Assembly: GCA_964638585.1 (NCBI GenBank)
Contig: CAZXAN010000004.1
Location: 708 to 64,707, forward strand
DNA from: an uncultured Candidatus Saccharibacteria bacterium
GTDB lineage: Bacteria > Patescibacteriota > Minisyncoccia > Phycocordibacterales > Phycocordibacteraceae
Direction of reading: 5' to 3'
DNA: 64,000 nt
The notes under the pieces are model-generated. The model had not been told where the DNA came from. It made no database searches and saw nothing but the letters and a program-made list of their open reading frames with translations. The translations under genes were made by a program, and so were the position numbers. Shown piece after piece: positions 11,416 through 13,417 of this stretch; the stretch's first letter is position 1; every line of letters starts with the position of its first letter.

Positions 11416-11588
11416 TTGCTTCTCCTTGTAAGAACACGGAACCCCACGGTTCCTTTCAGAAATCACGATTAACTTTATAACCTCTGAAAGGAAGGCGAGT
11501 AAGTTGCAACTCGCCACATAAGCCTACACGCCAGCTTTTGGGCGGAGAGGTTTAACGTGGAAATGCATTCTCGCCACGTGATCTTGGA
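11416..11588 (-). promoter_or_regulatory. conserved structured intergenic/leader element, copy 1
   Basis: Sequence blocks shared with 13067-13265: CGAGAAU-loop hairpin; AAACYUCUYCGCCC; GGCGYGUAGGC; CUCGCCUUCCUUUCAGAGG; 11 bp inverted repeat TTCCTTTCAGA / TCTGAAAGGAA closing a 20-22 nt loop; second small hairpin before the RBS. Confidence 0.4.
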
Positions 11589-12128
11589 CTATTCGCCAAC
11601 CTCTTGAAGCACGCGATGATGATAGCGAGCCGCAACAGTGGCGCGTGCACGAGGAGAGAGCAACTCTTCCTGCCGTTTCACTTCCGCGAGATACTGCTCG
11701 CGGCTGATAAGAGTAGAATACTTCTCTTCGAGTACGGCCGCGCAATTAGCCCCGACATGTGTCATATAGATCCGATAATCACGGAGTATACGACGCCGGT
11801 TAGGACTCTTACCCTTAAATACCTGAATAAGAATGGCACGTTGCTGATCGTTTAGTACCCAATCTCTCTTTTCACCCTTCCGGTTTTTATCCCAGACAAA
11901 CGTCGGGCTGAAGAGGTATGCGCCTTTGAGCGCAAAGAATGATTGGATATAACAATCGTCCGGATACAGATTTCTCTGTACATCCGAAATAATCCCAAGA
12001 CCCGCGAGGATCCGCAGAACCTTCCCTCCTGTCGTCCACGCATGCGTGAGACGGTCAGGGTTCCATTGCCAAAAGAGGCAAAGAAGAAAGAGTTCGTACA
12101 GAACCTCCCGTGTTACCTGAATCTTCAT
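11589..12128 (-). CDS. hypothetical protein (cassette gene C)
   Basis: 179-aa ORF; its 5' leader contains the hammerhead motif. Confidence 0.45.
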   Translation of the reverse strand: MKIQVTREVLYELFLLCLFWQWNPDRLTHAWTTGGKVLRILAGLGIISDVQRNLYPDDCYIQSFFALKGAYLFSPTFVWDKNRKGEKRDWVLNDQQRAILIQVFKGKSPNRRRILRDYRIYMTHVGANCAAVLEEKYSTLISREQYLAEVKRQEELLSPRARATVAARYHHRVLQEVGE

Positions 12129-12210
12129 TTATTTCTCCCTTGGTTGGTGGAATTAACTTACGAAACATCGCAAACTAATCCCACCAACCAGATTTTATTC
12201 AAAGAACATT

Positions 12211-12259
12211 CTCTTTCGTCCTTTTGGACTCATCAGTACGGACACACATCCGTAAAGAG
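12211..12259 (-). ncRNA. type III hammerhead self-cleaving ribozyme (candidate)
   Basis: Minus-strand RNA 5'-CUCU|U|UACGGA-UGUGUG-UCCGUA-CUGAUGA-GUCC-AAAA-GGAC-GAAA-GAG-3'. Invariant CUGAUGA and GAAA; G10.1-C11.1; A15.1-U16.1; H17 is U; stem I 6 bp, stem II 4 bp, stem III 4 bp (open). Confidence 0.6.
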
Positions 12260-12583
12260 CGACACGAGTTAGCATTTTCGTGTCATGTCATTAGAGGGGC
12301 TACCTCCTTGCTTTCGGGGCTCGCTTAACCCCTACTCAATGACTTTCGTTTTTGCGGCTTCGCCAACACCTATTGCCGCACATAAGAGTAAACGCTCTCC
12401 TAGAGATGTTTTACGGGTTTCTCCTCCCTCATGCAGTTCTCTTTATTCATTTCCGCGATAGAAATGGATGCCGGGCGTTCGCGCCATCAGAGATTGGTGG
12501 GAAGTTACCACCTGCTTCCATGTGCCATCACATAAAAGCTTTTGCGCAATAAGCTTGGGGTCTGCAAACCCTTGCGTATCGAT

Positions 12584-13066
12584 TCATTTCCTCCACTTTC
12601 TAGCTGCGGAAGCCGTGAGGTCGCCGTTTACGAAGAGTTTTCGATTCTTATAAACGGACTTCGCGAGCATGGCGTTCTGGACCGGCTGACCGACGTAGTT
12701 GTAGAAGTTGTCGGCTCGCTTATCAGAGTCCGTCCTCCCACACATGTCTCGCGTGTAACGATTTGTTCCGCCTTCGCAGGGAAATAAATCTACGCCGTGA
12801 GCAGACAGGTACTGCACCAGCTCACCGCGTTCGTTGTACGAGCAGCCGAGACCGACGGACTTCATTACTTCGCAAAGGTCTTTCGGTCCACTCATGCGAT
12901 AACCGATGTTCTGTTGAGTGAGCCGTTCGCGTTCTTTTTTGTTCCACATCCTGAGCGTTGGCGAGGACTTCGCGTCTTCGATATATTGAGAAGCGGTCAT
13001 CTGCTCTGCAGAGGAAACAGAAAGTGCGACGAAACAACATGCAACAATGACGATAAACCTAAACAT
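12584..13066 (-). CDS. hypothetical secreted Cys-containing protein (cassette gene B)
   Basis: Start MFRFIVIVACCFVALSVSSAE is a signal peptide; strong RBS AAAGGAGATTCAAAATG; preceded by conserved leader copy 2. Confidence 0.5.
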   Translation of the reverse strand: MFRFIVIVACCFVALSVSSAEQMTASQYIEDAKSSPTLRMWNKKERERLTQQNIGYRMSGPKDLCEVMKSVGLGCSYNERGELVQYLSAHGVDLFPCEGGTNRYTRDMCGRTDSDKRADNFYNYVGQPVQNAMLAKSVYKNRKLFVNGDLTASAARKWRK

Positions 13067-13265
13067 TTTGAATCTCCTTTGTGATTTGTACACGGAAACC
13101 GAATTGTTTCCTTTCAGAGACTTCGACTGTTCAAATCCTCTGAAAGGAAGGCGAGAAAATAATTTCCTCGTCCCCAAGAAAGATTAAAGGAACTGCTTAG
13201 GCCTACGCGCCGACCATAGGGCGAAGAAGTTTTATCTGGATTCTCGCCAGAATTAGACGCGACGG
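13067..13265 (-). promoter_or_regulatory. conserved structured intergenic/leader element, copy 2
   Basis: Same architecture and conserved blocks as 11416-11588; inverted repeat TTTCCTTTCAGAG / CTCTGAAAGGAA; second hairpin GGAAAC-AATTCG-GTTTCC; CTGG-CGAGAAT-CCAG hairpin. Confidence 0.4.
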
Positions 13266-13417
13266 CCTTTAATCATCAGAATGGCCGGACGAAATCCTCC
13301 CCACTGCCCACTCCGTTTGGAACTGCCGGCGTACGCTTTGTTCCCCCGGTCACGCCGCGAAACTGCCGCGGCCTTACGGGACTTGGACGTGCTCATTTTT
13401 CCTCCTGTGTTGTTGGA

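Follow-up and report, generated by a model that had tools for sequence, protein, structure and literature searches.

The 64-kb stretch of DNA analysed here (hereafter the window, whose positions serve as coordinates throughout) carries two minus-strand copies of a conserved structured element, copy 1 in front of a gene for a 109-aa protein and copy 2 in front of a gene for a 160-aa protein. The first-pass annotation of this DNA treated the element as a single upstream unit of approximately 150–200 nt, with a cis-regulatory leader among its possible functions; our results do not support one leader tied to the downstream gene, and this unit of about 170 nt is instead the frequent juxtaposition of two independent modules, which are separable in relatives. 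Module 1 is a double pseudoknot placed at the stop codon of the upstream gene, and module 2 is a series of hairpins situated ahead of the next gene or at the end of an operon. Because of their placement and their interchangeability, the modules argue for a generic intercistronic punctuation of a polycistronic mRNA rather than for gene-specific regulation, and we propose, as a tentative working model, that they may well be signals for the processing and stability of that mRNA.

A pairwise alignment of the two regions (11416–11588 and 13067–13265, minus strand) recovered, in order and in both copies, all of the sequence blocks listed in the first-pass annotation. Both copies contain an identical 19-mer, CTCGCCTTCCTTTCAGAGG, that has no further occurrence in the 64 kb (0.02 matches expected by chance at ≤3 mismatches), and no third copy was found in the window by blastn-short or nhmmer. 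The similarity between the blocks does not reflect protein coding, because the open reading frames (ORFs) extended upstream read through them in different frames (LAFLSEV versus SRLPFRG); a conserved upstream ORF or leader peptide was likewise rejected, being present in copy 1 only. Both regions folded better than all 200 of their shuffled sequences (z = −3.7 and −4.0). The proposal that the element is a functional RNA structure was borne out by its conserved stems and varying loops and by the further copies and covariation found in relatives, and the genes downstream of the two copies are indeed unrelated. Some details of the original description had to be revised. The “20–22 nt non-conserved loop” after a stem of 11–12 bp is mostly paired, giving a hairpin of 17–20 bp with a loop of 4–10 nt, and CYUCUYCGCCC and GGCGYGUAGGC are strands of the two pseudoknots, not single-stranded boxes. 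The impression that the element belongs to no recognized family agreed with the Rfam scan, which returned no match for it at gathering thresholds in the window or at E ≤ 10 in 2.9 kb. The suggested likeness of the CGAGAAU hairpin to cobalamin riboswitches (RF00174) did not hold up, as there was no match to this family at the gathering threshold in the window or at E ≤ 10 in searches of 2.9 kb and 196 nt.

Relatives were collected via homologues of the 179-aa protein encoded between the two copies, via homologues of the B116-like protein encoded by the first gene of the same run, and by one metagenome pattern scan. The fetched loci, numbered with the prefix L, included about nine distinct islands of small genes comparable to the one in the window (L029, L032, L034, L035, L038, L039, L061, L067, and L072).

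Module 1 is approximately 60 nt in size, and one architecture was common to 13 distinct copies. A hairpin (hp1), the stem of which covaries freely, is followed by a linker that ends in AAA(C). In the first pseudoknot (PK1), a tract of five pyrimidines after this A-rich linker pairs with purines on the 5′ side of the hp1 loop. An invariant CGCC then pairs with an invariant GGCG to form stem S1, a junction of 3–4 nt follows (UGUA in 10 of the 13 copies), and the strand 3′ of the junction pairs with the S1 loop to give the second pseudoknot (PK2). In copy 1, the linker is UUAAAC, CUCUC pairs with GAGA of the hp1 loop, S1 is CGCC/GGCG, the junction is UGUA, and PK2 is AAGCU:GGCUU; the corresponding parts of copy 2 are UAAAAC, UUCUU paired with GAGAA, CGCC/GGCG, CGUA, and GGUC:GGCC. 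In the proposed fold, the helices would form a quasi-continuous stack.

The pairing in module 1, scored first on 10 copies and later on 13, was supported. Because plain MAFFT misaligned the variable hairpin loops, the alignment columns were fixed by N padding. Among the 13 copies, 90.0% of the cells were paired, compared with 70.6 ± 1.7% in shuffles (none of 500 shuffles reached 90.0%), and controls in which the pairing partner was slid gave only 35–52%. Compensatory changes on both sides were present in 14 of the 21 pairs. All five hp1 pairs, positions 3 and 4 of PK1, and the four inner pairs of PK2 were paired in every copy, with compensatory changes in all but one of these pairs; positions 3 and 4 of PK1 show changes from G-C to A-U and from A-U to G-C and are never broken. 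Furthermore, three copies discovered after the model had been defined (two in L067 and one in L072) also fit it. Where hp1 overlaps the end of a coding sequence, as seen when copy c of L035 (L035c) is compared with copy b of L038 (L038b), the pairs are regained through a Thr-to-Asn substitution together with a synonymous one, which points to selection on the structure within the coding sequence.

In all 13 copies, a stop codon lies 3–47 nt before the pyrimidine tract and ends an open frame of 34–188 codons. The stop codon of the 179-aa gene is 10 nt upstream of hp1 in copy 1, and that of a 47-aa ORF is 1 nt upstream of hp1 in copy 2; in the set as a whole, the stop is up to about 20 nt upstream of hp1, in the hp1 loop, or in the linker. 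The distance from module 1 to the next start codon ranges from about 40 to several hundred nucleotides. With its start at the upstream stop codon or no more than about 20 nt from it, module 1 behaves as a 3′-untranslated region (3′-UTR) element of the upstream cistron. It can stand alone, as in L029 (6550–6609), where it directly follows the 179-aa gene. In L061 the second pseudoknot is missing, and the first is joined to the mid hairpin of module 2. A stimulator of stop-codon readthrough or frameshifting was rejected because the spacing from the stop to the pseudoknot varies, with stops from 10–20 nt upstream of hp1 to inside hp1.

The fold of module 2, seen in 15 copies, consists of a short mid hairpin abutting an irregular long hairpin of 17–20 bp. 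The mid hairpin is usually GGCGAG/CUCGCC, with CGUGG/CCACG, GGCAAG/CUUGCC, and others in its place in some copies; a GGCG/CGCC antiterminator switch was rejected since it is not conserved in the copies with other mid hairpins. In copy 2, a copy-specific insert of about 29 nt (13171–13199) precedes the mid hairpin. The lower 12 bp of the long stem (UUCCUUUCAGAG/CUCUGAAAGGAA) are near-invariant in sequence across relatives, with a double compensatory change in L032, and the upper part covaries. If the 16S rRNA has the 3′ terminus typical of bacteria, the long stem resembles this terminus (anti-Shine-Dalgarno) in its 5′ strand and a Shine-Dalgarno sequence in its 3′ strand. A covariance model of module 2 scored 53–89 bits on the sense strand and 19–41 bits on the antisense strand at the same loci; it had two matches in the window and none in relatives lacking the island. 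The frequent G·U pairs and the excess of sense over antisense scores indicate that module 2 is an RNA on the coding strand rather than a DNA palindrome. An operator for the TrmB-like regulator encoded nearby was rejected on similar grounds, since the covariation of the upper stem and the G·U pairs argue for RNA.

Most copies of module 2 that are followed by a gene also have a small covarying hairpin (GGAAxC...GxUUCC), which reuses the GGAA of the 3′ strand of the long stem and is absent from all three operon-end copies. It is followed by a GUUCUUU motif and a strong ribosome-binding site (RBS), which is never sequestered in the predicted folds; in copy 1 the order is small hairpin, GUGUUCUU, RBS (AAGGAG), and ATG. 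Module 2 occurs without module 1 in L029 (5908–5991), L032 (1441–1527), and L072 (1698–1785), and at operon ends with no gene downstream in L029 (7189–7272), L039, and L061 (7130–7209). In L029, one lone copy precedes the 179-aa gene and another lies past the next gene, with nothing but convergent genes beyond it; in L061 it closes the operon, and in L039 and in copy b of L035 a promoter-like site comes after it. Module 2 therefore behaves as a 5′-UTR element of the downstream cistron or as an operon-end element.

These operon-end copies bear on a different reading, in which module 2 would supply leaky intrinsic terminators or pause sites, made of the mid hairpin with UUCCUUUC and the small hairpin with GUGUUCUU, that set polarity and end operons. 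Among the sites flagged by the terminator scan were the mid hairpins of the two copies and, in copy 1, the small hairpin as well, and a U/C-rich tract always lies directly 3′ of the mid hairpin even though the sequence of that hairpin varies. However, the U-tract UUCCUUUC is interrupted by C residues, the five terminator-like sites found are not a significant excess over the 3.2 ± 1.8 in shuffles, and these islands close with canonical terminators that have clean U-runs. This reading also leaves unexplained why the tract pairs with a conserved downstream strand to form a helix of 17–20 bp, and we consider it improbable.

Particular genes do not come with fixed modules. Ahead of the 179-aa gene, the window has a hammerhead ribozyme and another long hairpin (hairpin B, described below), and L029, L032, and L034 have module 2; downstream of the 160-aa gene, the window has a hammerhead region, and L067 has modules 1 and 2. 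Since the modules of one and the same gene family change from strain to strain, these observations argue against a gene-specific leader or riboswitch. Among the functions that the first-pass annotation had offered, a cis-regulatory leader or riboswitch-like element thus lost ground, and a processing site stands as the best remaining option. A cis-regulatory leader, with module 1 as a riboswitch-like aptamer or protein-binding site and module 2 as its expression platform, would fit the order of pseudoknot, hairpin with U/C-rich tract, overlapping small hairpin, and RBS, as well as the GGAA common to two alternative helices, and Arg/Lys-rich small ORFs that recur in the islands could encode the RNA binders. 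Nevertheless, the downstream genes are unrelated and the same gene has different upstream modules across strains, module 1 is anchored to the upstream stop rather than to the downstream start, a hammerhead and more than 200 nt can separate module 1 from the next RBS, and module 2 occurs with no gene downstream and with an RBS that is left open wherever there is one. We therefore find this alternative rather doubtful. A weak SAM-II-like alignment at copy 1 in the 196-nt Rfam search (RF00521; 10.7 bits, E = 4.2) is in its favor, but the score is far from the gathering score of 36 bits. As in SAM-II and other aptamers of this type, a hairpin is followed by GUUAAAC and a classic H-type pseudoknot; unlike SAM-II, the element has a second pseudoknot. 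The context did not suit SAM-II either, as the downstream genes are unrelated hypotheticals, with no methionine or SAM genes, and the element is anchored to upstream stops.

Hammerhead ribozymes, the cutting activity of which is established, fill the same kind of intercistronic slot as the element. The sequence at 12208–12262, between the 160-aa and 179-aa genes, has what defines a type III hammerhead (RF00008; core CUGANGA...GAAA, NUH triplet, three stems, stem III open), as judged from the sequence and covariation: its core, CUGAUGA...GAAA, is complete, and stems I, II, and III have 6, 4, and 4 bp. Homologous hammerheads were found in L035, L038 (two), L039 (47.4 bits), and L067 (two, one of them at 49.4 bits, above the gathering score of 48.5), and stems I and II covary among the copies. 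Each hammerhead is followed by a GUUCUUU-like sequence, a second family of long hairpins (hairpin B, GGUUGGUGGAAU...AUUCCACCAAC), and an RBS, so that the GUUCUUU motif lies 3′ of both the hammerheads and the small hairpins of the element. Hairpin B was always between hammerhead and RBS (window, 12139–12191; L035, 2812–2860; L038, 1038–1090 and 1866–1918; L067, 3415–3465). In L035 and L038, the stop codon is followed in turn by module 1, a hammerhead, the long hairpin, and the RBS. A third family of long hairpins (CUUUAUAAAGU...ACUUUUAGAGA) lies ahead of other genes. Upstream of the hammerhead in the window, about 320 nt of non-coding sequence (12263–12583, minus strand) had no similarity to any fetched locus and no Rfam match. 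Pairs of hammerheads in the same orientation flank a non-coding RNA of about 280 nt in L067 (3013–3399) and two small genes plus a pseudoknot module in L038 (962–1844); cleavage by both members of a pair would yield a discrete RNA with 5′-OH and cyclic-phosphate ends, which could in principle be circularized.

The tight association with hammerheads in one island raises the question of whether module 1, perhaps together with the mid hairpin, is itself a new class of small self-cleaving ribozyme that cuts after each stop codon like its hammerhead neighbors. Twister-sister, pistol, and hatchet were found by just such ribozyme-neighborhood logic. The fold of module 1, a compact double pseudoknot, has nucleotides that never vary at unpaired or junction positions (AAA(C), CGCC/GGCG, and xGUx), as is typical of catalytic cores, its length of about 60 nt is within the range of small ribozymes, and its start is superficially pistol-like (5-bp hairpin, UUAAA, loop pseudoknot). 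On the other hand, a ribozyme would be redundant where module 1 and a hammerhead share one intergenic region (L035, 2570–2800; L038, 1675–1845), none of the Rfam ribozyme models gave a match, L061 retains the first pseudoknot but not the second, and a cleavage site is not nameable from the sequence alone. We regard a ribozyme as unlikely; its corollary, to which we likewise give only a small chance, is that module 1 and the type III hammerheads would cut the transcripts of the mobile cassettes of these candidate phyla radiation (CPR) bacteria into single-gene mRNAs, with AAA(C) and xGUx as the active site. The known classes did not account for module 1. Pistol has stems P1–P3, a 6-bp pseudoknot between the P1 loop and the P2–P3 junction, and a G-U cleavage site (PMC6154101). 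Module 1 shares with pistol (RF02679) a 5-bp hairpin, a loop pseudoknot with sequence after an A-rich linker, a small size, and a ribozyme-rich neighborhood; however, in module 1 the 3′ strand of the pseudoknot comes directly after the linker, there is no enclosing P2 and no P2–P3 junction, a second pseudoknot replaces P3, and there was no Rfam match to pistol at E ≤ 10. Twister, twister-sister, hatchet, and HDV-like ribozymes also gave no Rfam matches at E ≤ 10.

In the working model of generic processing and stability signals, the two copies in the window would punctuate one polycistronic mRNA of the island. The long hairpin would be cut by a double-strand-specific RNase, in the manner of RNase III in phage T7; alternatively, a hammerhead positioned between the modules would do the cutting. 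The pseudoknot and mid hairpin would then shield the new 3′ end from 3′-to-5′ exonucleases, giving a stable upstream cistron, and the released 3′ strand would refold into the small hairpin, which would protect the downstream cistron at its 5′ terminus and leave the RBS open. Such refolding would account for the overlap between the small hairpin and the long stem, as well as for the lack of this hairpin where no gene follows.

Several points weigh against this model. Cleavage at the long hairpin, the blocking of exonucleases with the resulting stabilization, and the refolding are steps that we infer from the predicted structures. As 0–2 nt separate the mid and long hairpins, a single-stranded site for cleavage is not obvious. 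In the lower 12 bp of the long stem, conservation goes beyond pairing to the sequence itself; this hints that a protein, the 16S rRNA 3′ end, or another partner recognizes the sequence specifically, which the model leaves unexplained. The invariant AAA(C), CGCC/GGCG, and xGUx junction nucleotides of module 1 are not obviously needed by a plain exonuclease block, and one junction in the window (12129–12583) has a hammerhead but no module 1. In addition, the hand-built alignment of module 1 biases the pair counts toward the model, a bias that the controls and the held-out copies limit but do not remove, and the sampling is narrow, with about nine distinct islands from a single clade.

Among the loci searched, the modules are restricted to islands of the kind found in the window, the features of which are listed in Table 1. 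NusA homologues assign the source organism to the Kaiserbacteria/Parcubacteria, and it is present in groundwater samples (runs ERR3094292–302). All of the small genes between the trmB-like gene and nusA are co-directional on the minus strand. In three relatives sampled by NusA (88–89% identity; 13 loci; L048, L049, and L051), there is no island and pilB adjoins nusA; the trmB-like gene, the B116-like gene, and the cassette region are therefore accessory DNA, present in some Kaiserbacteria-like (Parcubacteria) genomes as an insertion between pilB and nusA. The sampled islands mostly open with trmB and the B116-like gene and then diverge in gene content. The divergent pair of trmB-like and B116-like genes heads the island in the window and several of the others, and L029 lacks the B116-like gene.

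Table 1. Features of the island in the 64-kb window, in order along the minus strand
Feature	Position	Strand	Remarks
trmB-like gene	13918–14691	plus	Divergent from the minus-strand run of small genes
119-aa gene	13777–13418	minus	First of the run; DUF1874/STIV_B116-like
47-aa basic ORF	13396–13253	minus	Upstream of copy 2
Copy 2, module 1	13200–13251	minus	Double pseudoknot; hp1 UCUGG/CCAGA at 13235–13251
Copy 2, mid hairpin	13152–13170	minus	CGAGGAAA-UUA-UUUUCUCG; sequence unlike copy 1, position and fold alike
Copy 2, long hairpin	13108–13149	minus	Lower stem identical to copy 1; upper stem UUUGA/UCGAA
Copy 2, small hairpin	13094–13111	minus	GGAAAC-AAUUCG-GUUUCC; then GUGU, RBS AAGGAG, ATG 13066
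160-aa gene	13066–12584	minus	Secreted Cys-rich product; downstream of copy 2, ATG 13066
Non-coding stretch, 455 nt	12129–12583	minus	Between the 160-aa and 179-aa genes
Type III hammerhead ribozyme	12208–12262	minus	Between the 160-aa and 179-aa genes; 33.8 bits, E = 9e−5, below the gathering score of 48.5
Hairpin B (second long-hairpin family)	12139–12191	minus	GGUUGGUGGGAU...AAUUCCACCAACC; between the hammerhead and the RBS of the 179-aa gene
179-aa gene	12128–11589	minus	Upstream of copy 1
Copy 1, module 1	11520–11578	minus	Double pseudoknot; hp1 CGUGG/CCACG at 11556–11578
Copy 1, mid hairpin	11494–11515	minus	GGCGAG-UUGCAACUUA-CUCGCC; abuts the long hairpin; then UUCCUUUC; flagged as terminator-like
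Copy 1, long hairpin	11450–11493	minus	UUCCUUUCAGAGG...UCUGAAAGGAA, about 16–17 bp
Copy 1, small hairpin	11438–11453	minus	GGAACC-GUGG-GGUUCC; GGAA in common with the 3′ strand of the long stem
109-aa gene	11415–11086	minus	Downstream of copy 1, ATG 11415
Intrinsic terminator	11019–11052	minus	Canonical; GCCGCC...GGCGGC, then UUUUAUAAU; closes the island operon
nusA	10991–9537	minus	Beyond the island terminator

The position of the modules at cassette boundaries, in a hypervariable island with mosaic gene content, would also be expected of DNA-level recombination sites or of a small mobile repeat (attC-, REP/BOX/MITE-like) that shuffles cassettes, with the RNA structure incidental. GTTAAAC in two lineages matches the R′ consensus of attC, which we take to be GTTRRRY. 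However, most copies have no GTTRRRY, and the covariation of the pseudoknots, together with the frequent G·U pairs (A·C on the opposite strand), points to an RNA of the sense strand. Neither an integrase nor a transposase was seen in any island, and neither the rest of the window nor the island-less loci searched contained a copy. We therefore hold this explanation to be very improbable, and cassette exchange at the conserved modules may be a by-product. An integron attC site (R″/R′, RYYYAAC/GTTRRRY, folding from the bottom strand) was rejected because GTTAAAC occurs in two lineages only, has no inverted partner, and is accompanied by no integrase, and because of the asymmetry in favor of sense RNA. 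A dispersed repeat (REP/BIME, BOX, or MITE) was rejected because the 64-kb window has only the two island copies and the island-less loci searched, including the three relatives sampled by NusA, have none. A template/variable repeat pair of a diversity-generating retroelement was rejected because a reverse transcriptase is lacking and the differences between the repeats are indels that come in blocks, and a type III toxin-antitoxin RNA (ToxI-like, with tandem pseudoknot repeats beside a ToxN/AbiQ-type endoribonuclease) because the copies are dispersed between ORFs, not in tandem, and the five cassette proteins had no PADLOC match. No flanking repeats were seen around the island. The whole island had no blastn match among 50,697 phage records, and pattern scans of viral contigs gave no genuine matches. 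A scan of genome contigs with the GC-rich module 1 pattern returned 19 loci, all of which were chance matches within GC-rich coding sequence. Short-read Logan contigs from the same strain (L025 and L027), identical to the window, start at 13200 and 13155 and end at 11503. Position 13200 is the exact 3′ end of the copy 2 pseudoknot, 13155 is the start of the shared 19-mer, and 11503 is 4 nt before the other 19-mer; these edges may come from assemblies that broke off at the repeat or from strains that differ at the module boundaries.

The genes of the island are largely without assigned families. Searches of Pfam, PHROG, and PADLOC returned no family for the five cassette proteins except for a weak signal from the first gene, which consisted of a weak DUF1874/STIV_B116-like match and weak unnamed PHROG matches, and most island genes in relatives have no Pfam family in the precomputed annotation. 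A sequence search of the PDB with the 119-aa and 179-aa proteins gave a single match at chance level and no function. DUF1874 is presumably the AcrIII-1 ring-nuclease family. The B116-like protein has more than 400 close homologues, many of which carry PF08960; one is encoded in a phiKZ-like jumbo phage (L073), which contains none of the RNA modules. In PADLOC, the trmB-like regulator adjoining the cassettes had a weak match to CasR. Small, very basic ORFs rich in Arg and Lys recur in the window (13253–13396, minus strand), L067 (3969–4121), and L072 (about 2001–2132). They encode 47, 50, and 43 aa, respectively, and have a common KAY motif; the one in L072 is not called as a gene, and in two cases the ORF is directly upstream of the 160-aa gene. 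From their composition, these ORFs could encode RNA-binding peptides. In L072, a 251-aa protein with the C-terminal domain of the RNA polymerase alpha subunit (PF03118) is encoded at 2347–3102, preceded by the same hairpin module.

To our knowledge, few regulatory or catalytic RNAs have been described in CPR bacteria, which have tiny genomes. In the literature pairing hammerheads or self-cleaving ribozymes with CPR, Parcubacteria, or Patescibacteria, we found only passing mentions of both terms. Here, the gene junctions of one short operon bear no fewer than four kinds of conserved structured RNA, among them genuine hammerheads and a covariation-supported double pseudoknot that has no Rfam family. 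We could find no described counterpart of this double pseudoknot or of its coupling to the stop codon. If the modules do process and stabilize single-gene mRNAs, they would be a bacterial, RNA-only analogue of the RNase III punctuation of phage T7 and would give hammerheads a concrete role in bacterial operons. The pseudoknot is a reasonable candidate for self-cleavage, and the modules could serve as compact genetic insulators. The reach of these findings is limited by a distribution that so far is narrow, namely a handful of related metagenome-assembled genomes.

Among known systems, the upstream pseudoknot domain in the 3′ UTR of tobamoviruses consists of stacked coaxial pseudoknots right after the stop codon and acts as a stability or translation element. 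Module 1 likewise has consecutive pseudoknots beginning at a stop codon, an analogy of placement and topology only, since the tobamovirus domain belongs to a eukaryotic plant-virus RNA and has no sequence relationship to it. Plastid intercistronic elements act through bound proteins, unlike the intrinsic pseudoknot and hairpin architecture described here. They are short elements that allow polycistronic RNA to be processed into stable, translatable monocistronic units (PMC2230500), and the modules share with them their short length and intercistronic position. The RNase III sites of phage T7 (R1.1 type) are repeated irregular hairpins of about 20 bp between unrelated genes, and cutting at these sites leaves protective hairpins at the ends. 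In its predicted fold, module 2 is, like a T7 R1.1-type site, an irregular intercistronic hairpin of about two helical turns, with 17–20 bp and a small internal mismatch. It differs in having no sequence relationship to the T7 sites, in its coupling to a double pseudoknot on the upstream side and to a small hairpin that could refold, and in lying in a chromosomal island of CPR bacteria rather than in a phage. Hammerhead ribozymes flank single genes in prophage operons (Perreault et al. 2011, PMC3088659). The islands resemble those operons in that small unrelated genes are separated by structured RNAs that would process a long transcript, with genuine type III hammerheads in equivalent slots, and differ from them in that the element itself is no hammerhead and fills most of the junctions, whereas hammerheads fill only some. 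By analogy, the modules would function most like the RNase III sites of phage T7 and the hammerhead-punctuated operons of prophages.

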